DNA from: Thermotogota bacterium | GTDB taxonomy: Bacteria; Thermotogota; Thermotogae; UBA12178 | DNA: 11,415 nt | Assembly: GCA_003538775.1 (NCBI GenBank) | Contig: DPRG01000050.1 | Span: forward strand, 1 to 11,415 | Direction: 5' to 3' | In this document: positions 340-11,415 of the stretch, piece by piece | Layout of the letters: each line of letters begins with the position of its first letter | How positions within the stretch are numbered: the first letter of the stretch is position 1 | The notes under the pieces: model-generated | What the model saw: only the letters and a program-made list of their open reading frames with translations | Told to the model about the DNA's origin: nothing | Database searches by the model: none | Made by a program: the position numbers and the translations under genes

Positions 340-1584
340 GTGAGTGAACTTCTCGAAAAAGCGCAACGTGTGAGGGAAGCGTGGGAGATCTTGAAAACGT
401 GCCGTGCGCAGGAGAAAAACGAGGCTATACTGAAAATTGCGGAAGCATTGGATGTCGAGAGAAAAGCGATACTGGAGGCAAATCAAAGAGATGTAGAAGC
501 TGCCAAGGAACGAGGCGTGAAAGCGTCGTTGATCGACCGACTCCTTCTAAATGAGAAACGAATCGACTCCATGATCGAATCCTGCGAAGTGGTCGTGAAG
601 TTGAAAGACCCTGTTGGAGAAATCATTGACTCCTGGGTGAGAGAAGACGGTCTGAGGATCAGCAGGGTCAGAGTACCTATCGGTCCCATAGGCGTTGTTT
701 ACGAATCCAGGCCCAACGTCACAGTAGAAACCAGTGTCTTGGCCATAAAAAGCGGAAACTCCATACTGCTCAGGGGAGGTTCAGACGCTATAAACTCCAA
801 CAAAGCCATCGTTTCTGCCATGAAAAAAGCCTTGAAGGAATCGAGGATACCAGAAAGCAGTGTGGAGTTCATAGAAAGCACCGACAGGGCTCTGGTTGGA
901 GAGATGATAAAGCTTGAGGGTTATCTCTCTTTGATCGTTCCTCGGGGAGGCTACCAATTGATAAACTACGTCCGCAAAAATGCGACCGTTCCAGTGTTGG
1001 AAACGGGTGTGGGGAACTGTCACATATACGTGGACGAAAGCGCTGATTTGGAGAAGGCGATACCGGTGATCGTCAACGCCAAGGTCCAAAGGCCTGGCAC
1101 CTGCAACGCTGCCGAAAAGCTTCTGGTGCATGAGAAAATAGCCAACATTTTTCTGCCCAGAGTTGTGAAAGCACTACAAGAGCACGGAGTGGAAGTGAGA
1201 GGCTGTGAAAAAACTCAAAAGGTAGTGAATGTCAAACCCGCTACCGCCATCGATTGGGAAACGGAGTATCTGGACCTCATCATCGCGGTGAAAGTGGTGC
1301 GCGACGTGAACGAAGCCATAGAGCATGTGAAACGCTATTCCACTGGACATTCGGAGGCTATCATTACAGAGAACTACTCCAACGCACGCAAATTCGTCGA
1401 CTCTGTGGATGCCGCAGCGGTGTACGTCAACGCCTCCACACGCTTCACAGATGGTGGCCAGTTCGGGTTCGGCGCAGAGATAGGCATCAGTACGCAGAGA
1501 CTTCACGCCAGGGGACCTGTAGGATTGAGGGAGCTCACCACTTATAAGTACGTGGTTCTGGGCGACTACCATGTGAGGGGATGA
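340..1584 (+). CDS. proA: Gamma-glutamyl phosphate reductase (glutamate-5-semialdehyde dehydrogenase)
   Basis: 414-aa ORF with a GTG start 7 nt after a GAGGAGGG RBS. The translation matches the ProA family throughout (VPIGPIGVVYESRPNVT, catalytic Cys in RPGTCNAAEKLLVHE, YSTGHSEAIITEN). From memory it is very similar to T. maritima ProA. Confidence 0.95.
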   Translation: MSELLEKAQRVREAWEILKTCRAQEKNEAILKIAEALDVERKAILEANQRDVEAAKERGVKASLIDRLLLNEKRIDSMIESCEVVVKLKDPVGEIIDSWVREDGLRISRVRVPIGPIGVVYESRPNVTVETSVLAIKSGNSILLRGGSDAINSNKAIVSAMKKALKESRIPESSVEFIESTDRALVGEMIKLEGYLSLIVPRGGYQLINYVRKNATVPVLETGVGNCHIYVDESADLEKAIPVIVNAKVQRPGTCNAAEKLLVHEKIANIFLPRVVKALQEHGVEVRGCEKTQKVVNVKPATAIDWETEYLDLIIAVKVVRDVNEAIEHVKRYSTGHSEAIITENYSNARKFVDSVDAAAVYVNASTRFTDGGQFGFGAEIGISTQRLHARGPVGLRELTTYKYVVLGDYHVRG

Positions 1585-1585
1585 G

Positions 1586-2653
1586 ATGGGTAAGATCGTC
1601 GTAAAAGTCGGTAGCAACCTGTTAGTAGATGAACACCACAGCCTCAACAAAACCTACATAGCGGAACTCTGCCGGGAAGTGGCAAAACTCATATGGGAGG
1701 GTCACAAGGTTGCCATCATCACTTCAGGTGCTCGAGCAGCTGGATACGGGTATCTGAAATCAAAACTCAAAAGTCCAGATCTCTATATGAAGCAAGCTCT
1801 CTGCTCGGTGGGCCAAGTTCAGCTGATGAAGGTCTACGAAAACGCCTTCGATTTTTACGGTATAAAGATCGCACAGATACTTTTGACCAGGGATACCTTC
1901 ACCAACAGGAAAAGGTATTTGAACCTTCGCAACACCTTGATAGGCCTTTCTGAAATCGGCGCTTTGCCAGTCGTGAACGAGAACGACGCCGTGGCCGTGG
2001 AAGAGATCACTCTTGGCGACAACGATATGTTGGCAGCGATGTTTGCCATTGCGTGGAACGCAGATTATCTCGTTTTGCTCTCCACAGTGGAAGGTGTCTT
2101 AAACGATCGAGGAGAAGTGATTGAGGTCTATTCCGAAAATGTGAAACTTAAGAAATTGGGAAAGAGCTCCTGGGGAACGGGAGGTATTCGAACCAAGATC
2201 GAAGCAGCTACAAAAGCATCCACTGCTGGTGTGAGATCGTGCATCTGCAACGGAGAGAGAGTCGAAAACATCTCTCGTTTTGTTGGCGGTGAAACCGTCG
2301 GTACGGTATTCGAACCCCGAATTGACCATCTCCGAGCGAAGAAAGCATGGATAGGCCTTCTATCAGAACCTTCGGGCAGGATCTGGGTAAACGCTGGAGC
2401 TGAAGAAGCTCTCAAAGATGGGAAAAATCTTTTACCAGTAGGGGTCACAAAGGTAGAAGGAGAGTTCGATGCAGGAGATGTCGTAGAAATATTGGGCGAG
2501 AGTGGAAAGATCGTCGGCAGGGGGATAGTGAATTTCTCATCCGATGAGATGGAAAAGATCAAGGGGGTCAAGACTAATCGCTTGAAGCAGATCTTGGGCT
2601 ATGATGCCAGCAAGACCGTGATACACATAGACAACATGTGGGTGATTGGCTGA
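1586..2653 (+). CDS. proB: Glutamate 5-kinase with C-terminal PUA domain
   Basis: 355-aa ORF starting 1 nt after the proA stop (TGAgATG). It has the N-terminal VVKVGSNLL kinase motif and a C-terminal PUA-like segment (GRIWVNAGAEEAL...GDVVEI). Confidence 0.95.
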   Translation: MGKIVVKVGSNLLVDEHHSLNKTYIAELCREVAKLIWEGHKVAIITSGARAAGYGYLKSKLKSPDLYMKQALCSVGQVQLMKVYENAFDFYGIKIAQILLTRDTFTNRKRYLNLRNTLIGLSEIGALPVVNENDAVAVEEITLGDNDMLAAMFAIAWNADYLVLLSTVEGVLNDRGEVIEVYSENVKLKKLGKSSWGTGGIRTKIEAATKASTAGVRSCICNGERVENISRFVGGETVGTVFEPRIDHLRAKKAWIGLLSEPSGRIWVNAGAEEALKDGKNLLPVGVTKVEGEFDAGDVVEILGESGKIVGRGIVNFSSDEMEKIKGVKTNRLKQILGYDASKTVIHIDNMWVIG

Positions 2654-2974: not shown

Positions 2975-3808
2975 TCATATCTCTATGTGGAAAAACCGCT
3001 TCACGAAAAGTCCTATGAAGAACGAAGCTGCGGCAACACCCATGCTTATGATGAACATCTCCAAGAAGTTCTTCTTGAATTCTTGATTTTTGACGACCGA
3101 TACGAAGAAAGTAAACACGGATATGACGAGAACGGCGTTTATCGCCGTCACAGTCAGTGCAACGAAGGGATTGGCAAAGATCAGGTAAGGGAAGGTCAAG
3201 ATTAGAACGGTGAAGATGTAAGCGATACCCGTATAAAGCGCAGATTTTAAGGGGTTCTTCTCGTTGCTCTCCGATTTCCTCGCCAAGTAATCCGATGCGG
3301 CCATCGATAAAGCTGCGGCTATACCGGTGATAATACCTGACAGAGCAACAATTGGAGTTTTCTGAATGGCAAGGGTTAGCCCAGCAAGAGCTCCTGTCAG
3401 CTCGACAAGCGCATCGTTCAATCCAAGAACCATTGAGCCTATATACTCGAGTCTTTCCTCGTTTAACAATCCGAGTAGCGTTTTTTCGTGCTCTTTCTCA
3501 TCTTCCATGATCTCTTTCAACAGCTCGTCATTTGATATTCCGTAAGCCATTTGAGCTCTATCTTCGTTTCTTTCCATGAGCTTCAAAGAGAAAGTTATTC
3601 CCAACAGTTTGGCAAGGACGAGATAGAAATATACCTTCAGCCCACTCGGCTTAACCTCTCTCCCAGTTTTATTTTTGAGCCTGTGATAATGGTCCAATTC
3701 GTCCGATGCTATCTTTCGAAGAATCTCCGAGTTGTTTGGATCCATCTTAGCAAGCTTGGTGTAAACAACATATTCTGTTATCTCGTTCTTTTGGAATTTG
3801 AGTAGCAT
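2975..3808 (-). CDS. VIT1/CCC1-family Fe/Mn transporter with N-terminal ferritin-like (rubrerythrin-like) domain
   Basis: 277-aa ORF with ATG at 3808 and an AAGGAGGT RBS 6 nt upstream. The N-terminal ~150 aa has di-iron-type ExxH signatures (SDELDHYHRL, EDEKEHEKTL). The C-terminal half is hydrophobic with about four TM segments, as in the CCC1/VIT1 family. Confidence 0.85.
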   Translation of the reverse strand: MLLKFQKNEITEYVVYTKLAKMDPNNSEILRKIASDELDHYHRLKNKTGREVKPSGLKVYFYLVLAKLLGITFSLKLMERNEDRAQMAYGISNDELLKEIMEDEKEHEKTLLGLLNEERLEYIGSMVLGLNDALVELTGALAGLTLAIQKTPIVALSGIITGIAAALSMAASDYLARKSESNEKNPLKSALYTGIAYIFTVLILTFPYLIFANPFVALTVTAINAVLVISVFTFFVSVVKNQEFKKNFLEMFIISMGVAAASFFIGLFVKRFFHIEI

Positions 3809-3898
3809 CGAGAAACCTCCTTGGAAGGGTTACCGTATTATACCAGTGTAGTGTTATAATTATTCTGAATCAAAAAATCGTTCTGGAGGTGCTATTAA
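3809..3898. promoter_or_regulatory. Divergent promoter region between VIT1-like gene (-) and EncFtn gene (+)
   Basis: Plus-strand extended -10 TGTTATAAT (3852-3860). Minus-strand TATAAT (complement of 3837-3842). RBSs are present for both flanking genes. An AT-rich palindrome ATAATTAT (3857-3864) overlaps the + strand -10. Confidence 0.4.
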
Positions 3899-4240
3899 AT
3901 GCCAGAGTTTGTCAATCCGTTCAGTGGGAAGGTTCCTGAAAGGAAACTCACTCTTTCTGAATTGATCAGGGCCATAAGGCTCAACATCGCGGCAGAGCAT
4001 GAAGCGGTTCATCTCTACATGGCACATGCAGAAGCGACGGATCATCCGCTGGCTAAGAAGGTACTCATCGACATTGCGAACGAGGAGAGGGTCCATATCG
4101 GTGAATTCACGAAGCTTCTGGAAATACTGACTAAAGACGAGGCCAAGTACATGGCCGAAGGAGCAAAAGAAGTGGAGGAGATGATGGAGTCTGAATCGGG
4201 TGAAGAACCGACGATTGGTTCGATGAAAGAAGGTGAGTGA
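3899..4240 (+). CDS. Encapsulin-associated ferritin-like protein (EncFtn/Flp) cargo with C-terminal targeting peptide
   Basis: 113-aa ORF with a GGAGGTG RBS 7 nt upstream. It carries the EncFtn-type metal-binding motifs (AAEHEAVHLY, NEERVHIGEF). The acidic linker ends in TIGSMKEGE, which resembles GSL-type encapsulin cargo-loading peptides. The stop codon overlaps the start of the encapsulin fragment. Confidence 0.8.
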   Translation: MPEFVNPFSGKVPERKLTLSELIRAIRLNIAAEHEAVHLYMAHAEATDHPLAKKVLIDIANEERVHIGEFTKLLEILTKDEAKYMAEGAKEVEEMMESESGEEPTIGSMKEGE

Positions 4241-4497
4241 TGATGCCGAACAAATTTTTAATGCGTGAGGGCGCACCCTTCAGTCAGGAATTCTGGCAAC
4301 TGCTCGATGAAACTGTGATGAACGTTGCCAGAGCCCAGCTCACGGGGAGGAAGATCGTTTCAGTTAAAGGTCCCTTTGGCCTCGGTTTAAAACACATCTC
4401 TCTTGGGGAATACGACAGTGGAAGAGTGATGTCCGATCACGCTGGTGACAAGGAGAAGACCTTGTACTCATACCCCGATATTTCTATTTCTAGCTGA
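4237..4497 (+). pseudogene. 5' remnant of a family-1 (HK97-fold) encapsulin shell gene, truncated
   Basis: The first ~60 codons (about 4240-4420) align with the N-terminus of T. maritima encapsulin as I recall it (FLxRxxAPxxxxxWQxxD...QLxGRKxVxVxGPxG......LGE). After that the frame reads into the antisense strand of the convergent GH13 gene and stops at 4495-4497. No room is left for the ~200 further codons an encapsulin needs. Confidence 0.6.
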
Positions 4498-5840
4498 GCT
4501 TCATTCTCATCTATGATAAACGGCTTTGCGTTGCCAACAAGGTCCACGGCTTTCCTATACTTGGGGTTCAGTTTCTCAATGTCGATCCTTGCGATGTCCC
4601 CTTTATCCGAGTTGTTGAGCACTATCATGATCGCCTGGTCTTCCGACTCTCTTATGTAGCAATAAACGCCGTTGTGGGAGTACAAACTCTGGAATCTTCC
4701 CTTTCTCAACGCAGGATGCCTCTTTCTCAGTCTAATCATAATCTTGTAAAGCTGCAGGAGTTCTCTATTTTGGCGCTTCTCATCCCATATGAAAGGTCTT
4801 CGACAATCTGGGTCTCCATCACCCTCCATTCCGATTTCATCACCATAATAGATAACAGGAGCACCGACATATGTCATCAAGAAAACTATCGCTAATTTCA
4901 TCCGCCTCACATCGCCTTTACAAAGCGAAAGAAACCGAGGTTTATCGTGACTTCCTAAAAGGTTGAACATGGCATAGTTCGCCCATTTGGGATAACTTCC
5001 TCGTAAAAAACGGATCCTACCGTCGAATTCCCGTGCATCGCACTCGCTTTTTGCGAAGAAATCGATTAAGCTTTCCCATAGCTTGTAATTCATAACCGCG
5101 TCTAAACAGTCCCCCTTGAACCACGATGAAGCTATTCCCATCACTTCTCCAACTACATAAGCATCGCTTTTTGTTTCTTTGGCGACCCGCCTTATGTCTT
5201 TCACGAAACTCGGTTCTAAGTACTCGGTGGTGTCGAGTCGCCACCCATCGATATCCGCTTCTTCTATCCAATATCTGACAACTCTCAGCAAATACTTGCG
5301 CGTTTCGGGATTATTCGTGTTGAATTCGGGCATGTTGGGGATCCCACCCCAACACATGTAATTGGGTTCAGGTTCTCTCACAATGGGGAAATCTTCGATC
5401 ACGAACCAGTCCCGGTATTTGGAGCGTTCACCCTTTTCCAATACGTCCTGGAAAGCGAAAAAGCGCTCGCCGCAATGATTGAACACGCCATCCAGTATTA
5501 TCTTCATGCCGCGTTTGTGAAGTTCCTTCACTAACTCTTTCAACACTTCCTTGCTACCGAATTGGGGATCTATTTCGAAGTAGTCTTCCGTATCGTACTT
5601 GTGGTTAGAGGGTGCTTTGAATATGGGATTTAGATAAAGCGCATTCACGCCCAGTTCTTCCAGATAATCCAACTTCTCCATGATCCCCACGAGATCGCCA
5701 CCGAAAAAATTGTGAGCCGTAGGTTTGTCACCCCATTCGGCAACATCGGCTGGGTCGTTGTTTCTATCACCGTTGTAGAAACGATCAGGAAAGATCTGAT
5801 AGAATATCGCATCTTTAACCCAATCTGGTGGTTTCATCAT
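4437..5840 (-). CDS. GH13 alpha-amylase-family hydrolase (cyclomaltodextrinase/neopullulanase-like, no signal peptide)
   Basis: All four GH13 conserved regions are present (ILDGVFNHCG, DGWRLDTTEYL, VVGEVMG, NLLGSHDKPR). The preferred start is ATG at 5840, which has a GGAGGTGGAG RBS upstream and forms an ATGA overlap with the malG-like stop. The 504-aa track ORF starting at 5951 is an upstream in-frame extension. Confidence 0.9.
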   Translation of the reverse strand: MMKPPDWVKDAIFYQIFPDRFYNGDRNNDPADVAEWGDKPTAHNFFGGDLVGIMEKLDYLEELGVNALYLNPIFKAPSNHKYDTEDYFEIDPQFGSKEVLKELVKELHKRGMKIILDGVFNHCGERFFAFQDVLEKGERSKYRDWFVIEDFPIVREPEPNYMCWGGIPNMPEFNTNNPETRKYLLRVVRYWIEEADIDGWRLDTTEYLEPSFVKDIRRVAKETKSDAYVVGEVMGIASSWFKGDCLDAVMNYKLWESLIDFFAKSECDAREFDGRIRFLRGSYPKWANYAMFNLLGSHDKPRFLSLCKGDVRRMKLAIVFLMTYVGAPVIYYGDEIGMEGDGDPDCRRPFIWDEKRQNRELLQLYKIMIRLRKRHPALRKGRFQSLYSHNGVYCYIRESEDQAIMIVLNNSDKGDIARIDIEKLNPKYRKAVDLVGNAKPFIIDENEAQLEIEISGYEYKVFSLSPA

Positions 5841-6748
5841 CCTTTCACTCCACCTCCAGTCAAACCAGAAATGATTTGATCTTGCAAGCTGAAGAAGATC
5901 ACGAGCACGGGTAACGAACCCAAAATCGCGGCAGCGGCAAACGTTCCCCAATGACGAGCATAATCCGTAGTAATAAAGAAATTCAGTCCTACCGCAAGGG
6001 TGTACTTTTTCGTACCTGTCAAGATAACGCTCGCAAGAAGGTACTCAGAATAATTTCCTATAAACGTGAGGATGAATATCACAGTCAGTATGGGGCGAGC
6101 CAAGGGTAAGATGATCTTCACAAACGCTTGGAAGCGCGTAGCTCCATCTATCAGAGCTGCTTCTTCAAGATCGTGGGGTATGGTGTCGAAATAGCCTTTC
6201 ATCAGCCACGTGTTAAAACCGAGGGCGCTACCAAGGTATACGAGTATCAACCCGGCGTGTGTGTTCAAACCCATGAAGGGAACGTATTTCCCGATCCAAA
6301 GGAGTAGGAGATAAAGTGCGACGAATGCCAGCATGACTGGAAACATTTGAACCAAAAGTAATGTCAAAAGCAAGGTTCTTCTCCCTCGGAAATGGAAACG
6401 AGAGAACGCGTAAGATGCCAAGGCGCATAAGAAAACTGCTATCGAAGAAGCGATTGCAGAAACCTTAAGACTGTTCCACAACCACAACATGAACGGGTAG
6501 CGATCATCGGTGAAAAGTACTTTGTAGTGTTCGAGTGTGGGATGCTTGGGAATCAGTTCTTGACCATACAATGTACCCCCTGGATTGATGGAAGCCGAAA
6601 AAATCCAAACGACAGGGAAGAACGCGAATGCGATTGCCGCAAATATGATCATATGCTGTATAACCTTTTTGAAAATCAGTGTTTTTTTCTTCAATTCCTT
6701 CCCTCCTACTCGCATGAGCTCGATAGATCCGCTTTTATAGAGACTCAC
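5837..6748 (-). CDS. malG: ABC sugar transporter permease, MalG-like
   Basis: Polytopic membrane protein with the EAA loop EEAALIDGATRFQAFVKIILPLARP. The start could be GTG at 6748 (overlapping the malF-like stop) or ATG at 6715. It ends in an ATGA overlap with the GH13 gene. Confidence 0.88.
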   Translation of the reverse strand: MSLYKSGSIELMRVGGKELKKKTLIFKKVIQHMIIFAAIAFAFFPVVWIFSASINPGGTLYGQELIPKHPTLEHYKVLFTDDRYPFMLWLWNSLKVSAIASSIAVFLCALASYAFSRFHFRGRRTLLLTLLLVQMFPVMLAFVALYLLLLWIGKYVPFMGLNTHAGLILVYLGSALGFNTWLMKGYFDTIPHDLEEAALIDGATRFQAFVKIILPLARPILTVIFILTFIGNYSEYLLASVILTGTKKYTLAVGLNFFITTDYARHWGTFAAAAILGSLPVLVIFFSLQDQIISGLTGGGVKG

Positions 6749-8267
6749 TCATCTCTTCCAACCGCTTGGTAAAACGGAAGTTTGCAGCACTTATCGAACC
6801 GATTATTAGAAATATGATGACAGAGATTGCCGCAGCGTAACCATATTGAGCTCCTGCACCACCAAATGCCAGCTTATAAGTGTAGGAAATCAGTATGTCC
6901 GTTGCACCTGCGGGGGTTTGTGATCCCGGAATAGGAGGTCCCCCACCTGTGAGCAGATATATTACCGTGAAGTTGTTGAAGTTGAACGCAAAACTTCCGA
7001 TCAAAAGGGGTGCTAAGGAGATCATCAACAGTGGAAGCGTAATGGAACGAAATCTTTGCCAACTACTTGCTCCGTCCACTCGCGCTGCTTCATAGAGTTC
7101 TGGTGAAATGCTTTGCAACGCTCCCAACGATATGAGCATCATGTAGGGAAAACCAAGCCATAAATTGACGATGAGCAAGGCAACCTTAGCCCAAAAAGGA
7201 TCTTGAAACCAGCTTATTCTTGTGGATAGGAGTTTTTGAAGGATGTCATTTATGACGCCAAAGTTCGTGTTGAAAAGCCCGCGCCAAATCAGGACAGAGA
7301 TATAACCTGGGATAACGTAAGGCACGATCAAGAGTGTTCGATACAGATACCTGAACCTCAGAGTGCTGTCGTTCAACAAGATCGCCAGTGTCAGTCCAAG
7401 AACAAATGTGGTGAAAACCGACAGTAGCGCCCACAAAAAGGTCCATGTGAAGACACGAAGGAAAGGGCCCGAAATTTGTGGGTTTCGAAGGATATCTATA
7501 AAGTTTTTGAAGCCGACATAGGCTCTGAAGCCAGGCGAAAGTTTCTCGCCGTCTGACGACACAAACGTTCCATTTACTGGTCTGTAAACCTTCCCGGTCT
7601 TGAGATTAATGAGTACATCGCTTTTCTCGTCGTAGCGGTACAGTGGTTTAAAAACTCGGAATTCATCGATGGAGTAAAACTTAACGATACCGTCGTTGTA
7701 CTTGAATGCCAGGTTTTGAACCTCGTTGAGATTTTGTATGATTTGTACTTTGCTCATCCTTTGATAACCATCAATCTCTACGATTTCACCATCTTGATAT
7801 ACGAATAATGGATCGTGCACATCTGCAAGTTTCAAATGATCACCTACTGATAAATAAGCTTTATTCGTTTTTCTGGAGACGAGCAGAACTCGCATATCTC
7901 CTTCCGCATTTTTGAAAATCAGGTACGAAAAACGTTCACCGTTTTCGGGCTGAAAATACTCATTCGTGAACTGGGAAATTACTTGAGACTTGGAGAGAAT
8001 GTTGCCTGTTCCGTAGTTCATAAAAGATATATTGATGTTGTATATGATCGGATAAACAACCATTAACCCAAATAACACCAATCCCGGTAGCAGATACCGC
8101 AAAGGATAGGCTTTCCTTAAAAGCAAGGCAGCGTTAAGTCCCACCAATCCAAAGATCAATACGAACAAAAGGCCCCAACCCTTTGCTTGATAAAGACCAA
8201 CGCAAGCCCATATACCTAAGGCGTCCACCGCACTTAAAACTATAATCTTCAAAAGGATAGCTATCAT
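6735..8267 (-). CDS. malF: ABC sugar transporter permease, MalF-like (large periplasmic P2 loop)
   Basis: 510 aa with an EAA motif (YEAARVDGASSWQRFRSITLPL). A ~200-aa hydrophilic insertion after TM3 is typical of the MalF subfamily. Confidence 0.88.
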   Translation of the reverse strand: MIAILLKIIVLSAVDALGIWACVGLYQAKGWGLLFVLIFGLVGLNAALLLRKAYPLRYLLPGLVLFGLMVVYPIIYNINISFMNYGTGNILSKSQVISQFTNEYFQPENGERFSYLIFKNAEGDMRVLLVSRKTNKAYLSVGDHLKLADVHDPLFVYQDGEIVEIDGYQRMSKVQIIQNLNEVQNLAFKYNDGIVKFYSIDEFRVFKPLYRYDEKSDVLINLKTGKVYRPVNGTFVSSDGEKLSPGFRAYVGFKNFIDILRNPQISGPFLRVFTWTFLWALLSVFTTFVLGLTLAILLNDSTLRFRYLYRTLLIVPYVIPGYISVLIWRGLFNTNFGVINDILQKLLSTRISWFQDPFWAKVALLIVNLWLGFPYMMLISLGALQSISPELYEAARVDGASSWQRFRSITLPLLMISLAPLLIGSFAFNFNNFTVIYLLTGGGPPIPGSQTPAGATDILISYTYKLAFGGAGAQYGYAAAISVIIFLIIGSISAANFRFTKRLEEMSESL

Positions 8268-8334: not shown

Positions 8335-9537
8335 TCACTGGCACTTCAAGGTTTTCTTAATCGTCATTACCGCATTTTCAAGCGCTTCCTCTGGCGATTG
8401 CTTTTGACTGCAGAACAGGGTTATTGCATCTGCCCAAGCTGACCAGACGGCGCTCATCTCTGGAATCGCTGGCATCGGAATGCCAACGGCGATGTTTTCA
8501 GCAAATCCTTCGACAATCGGATCTTGTGCTACAACATCCAGAGCGGGCTTGTATGCAGGTACACGCGGATCCGCTTCATACAATGCAAGCATGGTATCCT
8601 TCGTCGCTACATAATCTTTCAAAAAGAAAGCAGCCAATGCCTTGTTCTTGCTGAACTTGCTCACCATGAATCCTTGAACGCCAACGAATGGCTTGGGAAC
8701 GTGCCCCTCCACGGTGGGAATTCTTGCAACTCCGACATCTATACCACTATTCCTCGCCCCTGCAACAGCCCAAGGACCTGTCAGTATCATACCAACCTTG
8801 CCTTCGTTGAAGAGGCTCGTCATCGTTTGATAGTCTATCCCTTCTGGAACTAATCCTTCTTTGAGCAGATCCAATAGGAGGTAGGCTCCTTTGATGGCTC
8901 CTTCGCTCGCCAAACCTATATCGCAGGGATTGAGTGTGCCGTCTGGGTTCTTTCCGAATATATACCCACCGTAAGCCGTAAAAAACGGGAAGCTGTGGTA
9001 AGGATCGGGTTGGGAAGCTTGCGTCAAGAATCCGTATTCCTTCTTTTCAGGATGTGTGAGTTTTCTGGCAATCTCTAAGAGTTCCTTCCAAGTTTTCGGA
9101 GGTGTTGGAACGAGTTTCCTGTTGTATATGAGCCCAATGGCTTCAGTAGCGTACGGCAACCCGTATATCTTGTTGCCGTAGGTGAACGCTTCTATGGCCG
9201 TTTTCACGAATTTGTCCTTGATCTCTTTCATGAAGTTCAGAGGCTCGATCAATCCATTGGCAACCAGTTGTCCCAGCCAGTCGTGAGCGCCTATTATGAT
9301 GTCCGGCCCTTCTCCAGCCGGTCCAGCAACGCTCAACTTATCTCTGATATCACCGAATGGCATTTCCTGGACTTCTACGGGCACACCGTACAATTCAGTA
9401 AATTGCTTACCCAAATCTTCAATGATCGGTTTTCTGAGCTCATCGGCCCAGATCAAGAGTTTCCCCACTTCCGATGCGAAGATAACCCCGCTCGCCACGA
9501 CCACCAAACCCAACAAGACGACCAAGAATCTCTTCAC
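8335..9537 (-). CDS. malE: Maltose/maltodextrin-type solute-binding protein (CUT1 family) with N-terminal signal peptide
   Basis: 400 aa with a GTG start at 9537 preceded by an AGGAGGTGA RBS. The N-terminus is hydrophobic (MKRFLVVLLGLVVVASGVIFA). Overall it resembles MalE-like SBPs (GKLLIWAD, GLPYATEAIGLIYN, motifs near the C-terminus). Confidence 0.88.
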   Translation of the reverse strand: MKRFLVVLLGLVVVASGVIFASEVGKLLIWADELRKPIIEDLGKQFTELYGVPVEVQEMPFGDIRDKLSVAGPAGEGPDIIIGAHDWLGQLVANGLIEPLNFMKEIKDKFVKTAIEAFTYGNKIYGLPYATEAIGLIYNRKLVPTPPKTWKELLEIARKLTHPEKKEYGFLTQASQPDPYHSFPFFTAYGGYIFGKNPDGTLNPCDIGLASEGAIKGAYLLLDLLKEGLVPEGIDYQTMTSLFNEGKVGMILTGPWAVAGARNSGIDVGVARIPTVEGHVPKPFVGVQGFMVSKFSKNKALAAFFLKDYVATKDTMLALYEADPRVPAYKPALDVVAQDPIVEGFAENIAVGIPMPAIPEMSAVWSAWADAITLFCSQKQSPEEALENAVMTIKKTLKCQ

Positions 9538-9620
9538 CCCAGTTCACCTCCTAAACCTAAACTTGAATATAATATGCAATGTCCGAAATCTTATGGTAAC
9601 TCACACTTTTCGATCACCGA

Positions 9621-10622
9621 TCACCTCCCTGTGGAACTTCTCACAATAAGCTTCGGTTTGAAGCGCACTTCATAACGTGGTGAATCGTCTCCTACTATCC
9701 TTTTTAAGAGAATAGTGGCCGCCTTCTTCCCCATTTCCACGATCGGCTGTCTAACTGTTGTAAGTCCAAGTTTTTCCGACCATTTCAAATCGTCAAATCC
9801 AACCACCCTCACATCAGTACCGAGCGTCAACCCCGATTCTTTTACGGCCTCCACAACTCCCATTGCGAGAGTGTCACAAACTGCAAAGATGTTTACAGGA
9901 AGCGTTGCCCTTTGGAGGATTTCCCTCGCAACGGTAAACGCCTCTGGGAAGCTTTCTCCAATCTCGAAAACATGAGAATTTGGAAGTGCGAGCCCCGCTT
10001 CCTTGAGAGCTTTTTCGAATCCCCGTCTTCTCTGTTCAAAAACACCACTGGCAAACTCAGGCTTGCCCTTTTCGCTTATGCTGATCAAAAACACTTCTCC
10101 TCGTTTCTCAAGCAAGTGCTTGCCAGCTAAATACCCGCCATACACGTTGTCAACGTAAACGGAATCGTACTTCTTGGAACACGCATCTACCAAAACAACT
10201 GGCTTTTTCGTCGGCACATGTCCTCCCTCAAACAGTTTTTCAGGAATGAGCGACACAAGAAGTACGCCATCACTTTGATAGGGAAAAGCGTTGGGATTAC
10301 TGTAGTCAACAAGCCGTCTTTTTGAAAACAATGGGTATATCGAACTGTCATACCAAGCATTGCTGAGCTCATCGTCTATTCCTTCGAATAAATATGCGTA
10401 GAATTCAGAACTCATGATGGGAAGAAAGATGGAAACCATATAGGTCTTGTTGGATGCTAAACTACGCGCAAATGGATTAGGACGATACCCAAGCTGTGCA
10501 ATAGCCCTGAGAACCTTCATCCGGTTCTCGGGTTTCACCGTCGGATTATTGTTGAGAACCTTAGAAACCGTTCCAAGGCTCACTCCCGCTAATCTCGCAA
10601 CATCTTTGATGCTCGGCTTCAT
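9621..10622 (-). CDS. LacI-family transcriptional regulator
   Basis: 333 aa with the N-terminal HTH IKDVARLAGVSLGTVSKVLNN and a periplasmic-binding-protein-like sugar-binding core. ATG at 10622 with a GAGAGGAGAG RBS. It is the first gene of the minus-strand cassette. Confidence 0.9.
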   Translation of the reverse strand: MKPSIKDVARLAGVSLGTVSKVLNNNPTVKPENRMKVLRAIAQLGYRPNPFARSLASNKTYMVSIFLPIMSSEFYAYLFEGIDDELSNAWYDSSIYPLFSKRRLVDYSNPNAFPYQSDGVLLVSLIPEKLFEGGHVPTKKPVVLVDACSKKYDSVYVDNVYGGYLAGKHLLEKRGEVFLISISEKGKPEFASGVFEQRRRGFEKALKEAGLALPNSHVFEIGESFPEAFTVAREILQRATLPVNIFAVCDTLAMGVVEAVKESGLTLGTDVRVVGFDDLKWSEKLGLTTVRQPIVEMGKKAATILLKRIVGDDSPRYEVRFKPKLIVRSSTGR

Positions 10623-10647
10623 CTACGGGATCTCTCCTCTCGCACGG

Positions 10648-10665
10648 AAATTAAACGTTTCATTT
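10648..10665. promoter_or_regulatory. LacI-type operator O1 (AAATTAAACGTTTCATTT, one mismatched pair)
   Basis: Palindrome centred on CG at 10656/10657, 26-43 nt upstream of the lacI-family start. It shares the AAACGTTT core with O2. Confidence 0.6.
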
Positions 10666-10762
10666 AAATGGTGGATGAAATATACATGCTCTATGCTGAA
10701 CGCTTTTCAAGGTCATAACTGATTTTGGCTCGCCACTTATCGCACTTTCTTTTTATGAGTAA

Positions 10763-10782
10763 TGAATGAAACGTTTCATTCA
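10763..10782. promoter_or_regulatory. LacI-type operator O2 (TGAATGAAACGTTTCATTCA, perfect 20-bp palindrome)
   Basis: Perfect dyad read directly in the sequence. Its centre is 116 bp from the O1 centre (~11 helical turns). A + strand TATAAT follows at 10787-10792. Confidence 0.65.
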
Positions 10783-10926
10783 AAATTATAATACAGCACC
10801 CGAGTTATGTCAAGGACATCTCGAATGCTGATCTACCCCCAGTTTTTCAGGGAGGCTTGGTTTTCAGCATGGATGGCCACATAACGACAAGATAAAGGAC
10901 TCAACTGTGAGAATCATTAAAATAAT

Positions 10927-10956
10927 CCCCTGGAAGACCATCTTCCAGGGGAGGGG
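10927..10956 (+). promoter_or_regulatory. Perfect 10-bp hairpin (CCCCTGGAAG-accat-CTTCCAGGGG) overlapping the SD (GGAGGGG) of the transposase gene
   Basis: Inverted repeat at 10927-10936 / 10942-10951. The 3' arm shares its G-run with the RBS, which sits 6-8 nt before ATG at 10963. A sequestered RBS is a common arrangement in IS elements. Confidence 0.5.
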
Positions 10957-10962
10957 AAAACC

Positions 10963-11415
10963 ATGAAGAAAAGAATCAATCCCAGAAGAATTATACTCAT
11001 TGTCAGGGACTTATTCAACCCTGTCCTTGGAAAACATGCTTTGAGGAACATGATCCTCTCCATGATAGCGATAGCTCTCAGTCCCAAGATGAGGGTAAAC
11101 GAAATATCTAGGCACTTGCCCACAAAAGTCAAAGGTGATAAGCACAAGCAAAAGAGATTACTGAGGTTTCTCGACAGAGGGATCCCCACCAGTGAGGTGA
11201 TGGAACTGTGGGCAAAGTATGTGCTGAACACACTGAAGCCAAGGGTCATCATCGTGGACGAGACAGACCTTCCGGGAGGATTCAAAGCGATAGTGGCTGC
11301 TGTTCCTTTCAGGAAGAGAGCGGTACCGATTTACTTCATGACATACAGCCATGAACAGATAGATGAGATGAAGTACCTCAGTTGGAACCAGATAGTGGAT
11401 ATGTTTGTAGATAAG
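10963..11415 (+). mobile_element. DDE transposase gene of an IS element (IS4/IS5-superfamily-like, family uncertain), 5' partial CDS running off the window
   Basis: Open frame of 151 codons from ATG at 10963 with no stop before the window end. It is absent from the ORF track because it has no stop in the window. The basic N-terminus (MKKRINPRRIILIVRDLFNPVLGKHALRN...) and the motif VIIVDETDL are consistent with the first catalytic Asp region of DDE transposases. The track's minus-strand ORFs here are antisense artefacts. Confidence 0.6.

Follow-up and report, generated by a model that had tools for sequence, protein, structure and literature searches.

The question posed by this locus is which protein acts at two related palindromes located upstream of a maltodextrin uptake operon in an uncultured Thermotogota bacterium and whether both palindromes contribute to the control of that operon. 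The window, i.e., the whole stretch of 11,415 nucleotides that was analyzed, has identical copies in oil-production-facility metagenomes, and a search of genome contigs with the LacI protein encoded in it yielded two related MAG contigs. The whole cluster is carried by the minus strand in the order lacI-malE-malF-malG-GH13 and comprises the following genes:

9621..10622, minus strand: LacI-family repressor gene (333 aa; PF00356, PF13377), the first gene of the operon
8335..9537, minus strand: malE, maltose/maltodextrin-binding protein (NCBIfam MalE equivalog, 294.5 bits; cut-off, 291)
6735..8267, minus strand: malF, permease (NCBIfam MalF, 437 bits; cut-off, 392; MalF P2 domain found)
5837..6715, minus strand: malG, permease (NCBIfam MalG, 278 bits; cut-off, 261)
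4437..5837, minus strand: GH13 alpha-glucan hydrolase gene (PF00128 at 1e-81), the last gene of the operon

The top NCBIfam matches of the GH13 product are the MalZ-like and cyclomaltodextrinase models, each below its cut-off, and the enzyme appears to resemble a maltodextrin glucosidase or a cyclomaltodextrinase. GH13 is followed by convergent genes. A three-ORF cluster downstream of the operon (positions 2975-4497) has a rubrerythrin-VIT1 fusion (2975-3808, minus strand), a 113-aa ORF with a weak Mn_catalase/ferritin-like match (3899-4240, plus strand), and an 85-aa ORF with a Linocin_M18 (encapsulin) match (4237-4497, plus strand); the latter match is far below the full length of the shell protein, so this ORF may be a fragment. 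A pair of adjacent genes at positions 340-2653 (plus strand), encoding an aldehyde-dehydrogenase domain (414 aa) and an amino-acid-kinase domain combined with PUA (355 aa), looks like the proline-biosynthesis genes proA and proB and is unrelated to the operators.

The region upstream of lacI contains the following features, listed in the direction of transcription:

10808..10813, minus strand: -35 hexamer TTGACA of the lacI-mal promoter, part of a 12/12 consensus match
10785..10790, minus strand: -10 hexamer TATAAT, separated from the -35 hexamer by a 17-bp spacer, part of the same 12/12 match
10763..10782, no strand assigned: O1, promoter-proximal operator TGAATGAAACGTTTCATTCA, a perfect 20-bp palindrome in the sequence
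10666..10762, minus strand: inter-operator leader of 97 nt without a detectable function of its own (neutral drift, no Rfam match, ordinary fold)
10648..10665, no strand assigned: O2, putative auxiliary operator AAATTAAACGTTTCATTT in the 5' leader, an 18-bp dyad with one mismatched pair
10634..10638, minus strand: Shine-Dalgarno sequence AGGAG of lacI, read from the sequence, 11 nt before the ATG

The original prediction described a perfect palindrome and a degenerate copy of it, separated by 116 bp from center to center, with the copy immediately upstream of the regulator gene, and the coordinates bear this out. The centers of O1 and O2 are at 10772.5 and 10656.5, respectively; O2 lies 10 nt upstream of AGGAG, and its center is 34 nt before the ATG and at approximately +122 from the inferred start. 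Because the genes are on the minus strand, O1 is the promoter-proximal site and O2 the gene-adjacent one. When the window was shuffled 2,000 times at the mononucleotide level, a perfect palindrome at least 20 bp long arose in only 21 cases, and the next longest palindrome in the window after O1 is 12 bp. The expected number of second copies of the 16-mer core with at most one mismatch is 2e-4 per window and 6e-6 per 341-bp intergenic region. Judging from these shuffling and copy-expectation figures, both sites are far beyond chance. On the gene strand, O2 reads AAATGAAACGTTTAATTT, with A replacing C, and keeps 13 of the 14 core positions. A weak operator-like dyad, CATGAAGCGGTTCATC, which matches 12 of the 14 core positions and is located at 3998-4013 within the 113-aa ferritin-like ORF, is probably a chance match.

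Assignment of these sites to the “LacI/CcpA type” holds in its first half only. Both O1 and O2 are of even length and are centered on CG. The same holds for the palindromes used by nearly all surveyed LacI-family regulators, and over 75% of the surveyed sites are found 30-140 bp ahead of the start codon (PMC4052901). CcpA is likewise a LacI-family regulator that binds a palindrome with a central CG, but the register is wrong for cre. The 12-bp core of the sites is TGAAAC|GTTTCA, with the TG/CA arms one base nearer to the central CG than in cre, and, because of this shift, the cre consensus TGNAANCGNTTNCA misses O1 and O2 even with one mismatch allowed (TGnAAnCGnTTnCA also remains unmatched at this threshold). 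The genetic setting differs as well: here it is a local operon, whereas CcpA-cre control extends over a global regulon.

The original prediction overlooked a promoter that directly abuts O1. The TTGACA-17-TATAAT sequence at 10813-10785 matches the sigma-70 consensus in 12 of 12 positions and is the sole such match in the window; the other promoter-like matches in the operon do not exceed 9/12, and their frequency is at or below the chance rate. O1 starts 2 bp past the -10 box and therefore covers the likely transcription start; assuming that transcription begins 7 nt after the -10 box, O1 would span approximately -4 to +16, and the leader, with O2 inside it, would be roughly 155 nt long. Promoter scans reported no second promoter ahead of O2, and the only candidate for this role, TTGAAA-20-TATATT, was rejected because its spacer is too long. 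The 83-bp gap between lacI and malE (9538-9620) has no site even when up to 4 mismatches in 16 positions are allowed, in agreement with the earlier statement that no equivalent site exists there. A separate strong promoter with an operator before malE was also looked for: no comparable promoter was found there in the window or in the relatives, the sole strong promoter being the one that precedes lacI. Hence, the suggestion that the whole cassette is transcribed from the regulator's promoter is plausible, and co-transcription of the operon, judged from the arrangement of these signals, is probable.

An 18-codon ORF in the leader (MTLKSVQHRACIFHPPFK; 10660-10716, minus strand) has its stop codon inside O2. 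It was rejected as a leader peptide gene, as it is not preceded by a Shine-Dalgarno sequence and a 1-nt indel breaks the frame in the close relatives L096 and L102; this ORF is probably non-coding.

Comparison of the upstream regions of seven ortholog lineages, whose LacI proteins share 58-82% identity, sets the promoter and the operator apart from the rest of the region. The mean column identity of the alignment is 35%, and the only invariant blocks are CTTGACA, which is also kept in the 94-95% identical relatives, and ATGAAACGTTTC. Every lineage has a promoter with an 11-12/12 match and a -10 box that reads TATAAT, TATTAT, or TATACT, and the operator 14-mer starts 5-16 bp past the -10 box in all seven. 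The exact 14-mer ATGAAACGTTTCAT is found upstream of lacI in six lineages, the seventh having a copy with two mismatches, and among the 94 loci examined it is confined to the ortholog loci. In every lineage, lacI is the first gene; transporter or GH13 genes come next, after a gap of 32-83 bp that contains neither a site nor a conserved promoter. Because the promoter-operator module is conserved and nothing comparable precedes malE, autoregulation of lacI-malEFG-GH13, as envisaged by the original prediction for lacI-malEFG-amy, is well supported. The 94-95% identical relatives, which belong to the same 90% cluster as the window, have a homologous leader with both operators. O1 has the sequence GAATGAAGCGTTTCATTT in these relatives, which makes the perfect symmetry over 20 bp a peculiarity of the window's lineage.

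In three relatives, the same kind of module precedes another gene. The gene for a GH97 alpha-glucosidase-family enzyme next to lacI carries TTGACA-17-TATAAT-ATT-GATGAAACGTTTCATC, with the 14-mer ATGAAACGTTTCAT 4 bp past TATAAT:

L008, 940-1033: GH97 promoter-operator
L009, 771-864: GH97 promoter-operator
L095, 922-1015: GH97 promoter-operator

Since this module is the same as that of lacI, a small alpha-glucan regulon is indicated, with GH97 as its second predicted member. An exact copy of ATGAAACGTTTCAT was also seen in the 79%-identity lineage (L010, 167-182), 359 bp upstream of the lacI operator; it adjoins a called 77-aa ORF and has no obvious promoter nearby. In the window, the place of GH97 is taken by a gene for an IS4-family transposase (weak NCBIfam match, 1.9e-11), which starts at 10963 on the plus strand, is divergent from lacI, and runs off the window; it is also found at L003, 3-650. 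A perfect hairpin with a 12-bp stem (10926-10952) overlaps the ribosome-binding site of the transposase gene, and three short assemblies that cover this locus break off at approximately 10934-10935, as expected for a repeat boundary. Because four relatives (L001, L008, L009, and L095) carry GH97 in place of the transposase, the insertion sequence appears to have replaced or displaced this gene, about 110 bp upstream of the -35 box of lacI.

None of the 80 metagenome loci with distant LacI homologs (27-46% identity) has a copy of the 14-mer, which is an uninformative control because the chance expectation is only ∼0.001. A few of them carry another motif, a TGGAAACGTTTCCA-like sequence with a 14-bp core. 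In L018 (sites at -60 and -44 from the start of the homolog) and L027 (-72 and -56), whose homologs are 39-45% identical, TGGAAACGTTTCCA-like sites come in pairs 16 bp apart, with a longer half-site register and a two-site geometry other than that of the Thermotogota clade.

The regulator has a typical LacI-family organization, with an HTH_LacI domain (PF00356, 3e-18, residues 4-49) and a sugar-binding core that resembles periplasmic binding proteins (PF13377, 1e-22). It aligns end to end with the structures of PurR, CcpA, and RbsR and ends level with the dimeric PurR and CcpA; in sequence, the solved structure closest to it is 2h0a, a Thermus regulator core, and CcpA also ranks among the better matches in the PDB. 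The hinge reads ARSLA, and its Leu55 is invariant and occupies the position of the leucine lever, which in PurR and LacI inserts at the central CpG. Residue 307 aligns with residue 306 of LacI, and the protein ends at residue 333, i.e., at approximately LacI residue 332, leaving the 28 C-terminal residues of LacI unmatched. The tetramerization helix of LacI comprises residues from about 340 to 357, so the regulator has no counterpart of this helix. None of the NCBIfam equivalog cut-offs was reached, which excludes Cra, CcpA, MalI, GalR, PurR, and RbsR as assignments: the Cra models NF008452 and TIGR02417 gave 47.6 bits (cut-off, 385) and 58 bits (cut-off, 389), respectively, the CcpA model TIGR01481 gave 136.7 bits (cut-off, 442), and the MalI model gave 69 bits (cut-off, 310), and no NCBIfam MalR model scored at all. 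Thus, there is no orthology to MalI of E. coli or MalR of Firmicutes, and a functional analogy to them is suggested by the gene context only. The ortholog group is confined to a few uncultured Thermotogota lineages, and the next relatives, from Thermus and Deinococcus, share at most 45% identity.

These observations are best accounted for by an autoregulated lacI-malE-malF-malG-GH13 operon in which a dimer of the regulator bound at O1 represses the consensus promoter, O2 serves as an auxiliary site, and an alpha-glucan sugar acts as the inducer; we assign this reading a probability of roughly 80%. The sigma-70-type promoter at 10813-10785 would drive the minus-strand operon and, in the absence of the inducer, a dimer of the LacI-family protein encoded by the first gene would bind O1 over the transcription start and block binding of RNA polymerase, formation of the open complex, or promoter escape. 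The assignment of O1 as the operator of the local regulator at the transcription start has strong support from the conserved geometry, and binding of both O1 and O2 by this regulator is predicted from co-occurrence of the motif upstream of every ortholog. The weaker O2 would most likely add to repression, either as a roadblock to elongation or by holding the repressor near O1; a phased loop would be unneeded. Gene context suggests that an alpha-glucan-derived sugar, probably maltose or maltodextrin, would free the repressor and thereby jointly induce the genes for the transporter, the hydrolase, and the repressor itself.

Two of the alternatives concern the way in which the palindromes are read. 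They could be bound by some other protein, such as a global catabolite regulator that resembles Cra/FruR or CcpA and recognizes TGAAACGTTTCA. The likeness to Cra/FruR is striking at the DNA level, as the 12-bp core TGAAWCGWTTCA is present here, the O1 core TGAAACGTTTCA is that of O1 of E. coli fruB, and the O2 core TTAAACGTTTCA is that of the single operator of P. putida PfruB; given such a Cra-identical core, a second protein of the same specificity might be encoded elsewhere in the genome. However, the motif tracks the LacI ortholog group in every lineage, always at its own promoter; the adjacent protein is not an equivalog of Cra or CcpA, being far below both cut-offs; and the literal cre 14-mer is not matched by the sites. 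Besides, the genes serve maltodextrin uptake (malEFG and GH13) and do not belong to a fructose PTS, a sugar is presumed as the effector in place of fructose-1-phosphate, and local autoregulation is the norm of the family, with 72% of 1303 surveyed LacI-family regulators being autoregulated (PMC4052901). Control of these sites by a global regulator is therefore quite improbable. Even less credible is an action of the palindromes in the leader RNA instead of as protein-binding DNA, with hairpins that would serve as an attenuator or a riboswitch-like element or would mask the ribosome-binding site. O1 and O2 are indeed mutually complementary, and O2 is the partner of the leader's 5' end in the minimum-free-energy fold, but the stability of this fold is ordinary (z = +0.59, with 139 of 200 shuffles at least as stable), Rfam gave no match with E < 0.5 on 9400-11415, and a leader RNA element was rejected on these two grounds. 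Further, the transcript would include just roughly half of O1, the pairing is impossible in the single-operator orthologs, and the leader drifts neutrally, all of which makes an RNA-level role extremely unlikely.

The remaining alternatives, which concern the second site, lead away from the autoregulated operon with an auxiliary O2 in opposite directions, one giving O2 a greater role and the other giving it none. The original prediction took the in-phase spacing as a sign of DNA looping, i.e., of O1 and O2 being bridged by the repressor in a loop of ∼11 turns that ensures tight repression, with the in-phase distance of 116 bp selected for. At 10.5 bp/turn, this distance does correspond to 11.05 turns. 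E. coli LacI offers a partial parallel, with the primary operator lacO1 placed over the transcription start and a weaker auxiliary operator farther downstream, within the transcribed DNA. LacI, however, is a tetramer, held together by its C-terminal helix, and its gene does not head the operon that it represses, whereas the regulator described here lacks this helix and is encoded by the first gene of its own operon. A dimeric repressor of the family, GalR, forms with HU a loop of 113 bp and 11 turns (PMC4693257), close to the 116 bp seen here, and in E. coli fruB two operators with the same core, located in one regulatory region, are bound cooperatively by Cra (PMC4050194, PMC10760178). Nevertheless, the gal loop encloses the promoters that its operators bracket (PMC4693257), whereas O1 and O2 are both downstream of the -10 box, so a loop between them would not enclose the promoter. 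The spacing between the two operators is 116 bp in the window, 114 bp in L100, 111 bp in L096 and L102, and 77 bp in L013/L014 (11.05, 10.86, 10.57, and 7.33 turns, respectively), so helical phase is not conserved, and the DNA between the operators drifts neutrally and tolerates indels in the close relatives. With five of the seven ortholog lineages repressing, or being built to repress, with a single operator, with the phase drifting, with both sites past the -10 box, and with no tetramerization helix, phased looping is unsupported, and we consider it improbable. The same low standing is given to a bolder version of cooperation, according to which this Thermotogota-specific LacI clade is the missing type of maltodextrin regulator of the phylum and, in the lineage of the window, has evolved a two-operator lock, with two dimers cooperating across the leader through GalR-like stacking or HU despite loose phasing and the lack of a tetramerization domain.

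The opposite possibility is that O1 is the sole working operator and O2 is a decaying relic, left, e.g., by a past rearrangement in which the operator was duplicated, and hardly affects expression, if at all. It is consistent with the C-to-A change in O2 at a position that is C in six of the seven promoter-proximal operators and with the absence of O2 from five of the seven ortholog lineages (58-82% identity), which have the promoter-proximal operator only. In the 94-95% identical relatives, O2 carries other mismatches, one or two of them, with identity at 11-12 of 14 positions, and such differing mismatches gather at an approximately neutral rate, the identity of the inter-operator DNA among close relatives being 0.82-0.87, compared with 0.87-0.90 at the 4-fold sites of lacI. 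Given the five lineages without O2 and the near-neutral change in close relatives, conservation cannot show that O2 is functional. On the other side, the chance expectation of 6e-6 in the intergenic region means that O2 arose from a real operator, it retains 13 of the 14 core positions, and its variant half-site TTAAACGTTTCA is identical to that of a high-affinity P. putida Cra operator with a KD of ∼26 nM, although this is an analogy only. An independent lineage, L013/L014 (73% identity), also has a second site in the leader, 77 bp downstream, and tests for tandem duplication were not significant: an alignment of the 120 nt upstream of O1 with the O1-O2 interval scored 28, not convincingly, as 20 of 1,000 shuffles scored as high or higher, and an alignment of the last 60 nt scored 19, which was at least equaled by 105 of 1,000 shuffles. 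Two other derivations of the inter-operator DNA were tried and rejected: as a decayed copy of the ribosome-binding site and 5' coding region of lacI, it scored 15, below the shuffle mean of 17.2, and its homology to the inter-operator DNA of L013 was not significant (183 of 2,000 shuffles at least equal). A relic O2 is accordingly an unlikely outcome, if one to be taken more seriously than a loop, and a role of O2 as an auxiliary site, acting as a roadblock or raising the local concentration of the repressor, is more economical than a phased loop.

The autoregulated operon with O1 as its main operator fits among the local LacI-family sugar repressors of Thermotoga and other bacteria (PMC3750489, PMC4052901), which have the same domains and an even, CG-centered site near the start codon of their own operon. 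Like the regulator described here, they are autoregulated, and their genes are grouped with those for an ABC-type sugar transporter and a glycoside hydrolase. Unlike the catalogued local repressors, this regulator is below all NCBIfam equivalog cut-offs and is found in a few Thermotogota lineages only. The locus is thus a conventional LacI-family control region and brings nothing new on the mechanism of LacI-family repression. What it provides is an operator motif, ATGAA(A/G)CG(T/C)TTCAT, and a promoter geometry for a previously unnamed LacI-family regulator, whose predicted targets are maltodextrin uptake and, in relatives, GH97, in uncultured Thermotogota sampled from oil reservoirs and hydrothermal settings. 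The reconstruction of the carbohydrate regulons of T. maritima assigned no regulator to the maltose/maltodextrin pathway (PMC3750489), and the clade therefore fills a small gap for other members of Thermotogota. The motif and geometry could be used for better annotation and as a compact thermophile promoter-operator module for engineering.
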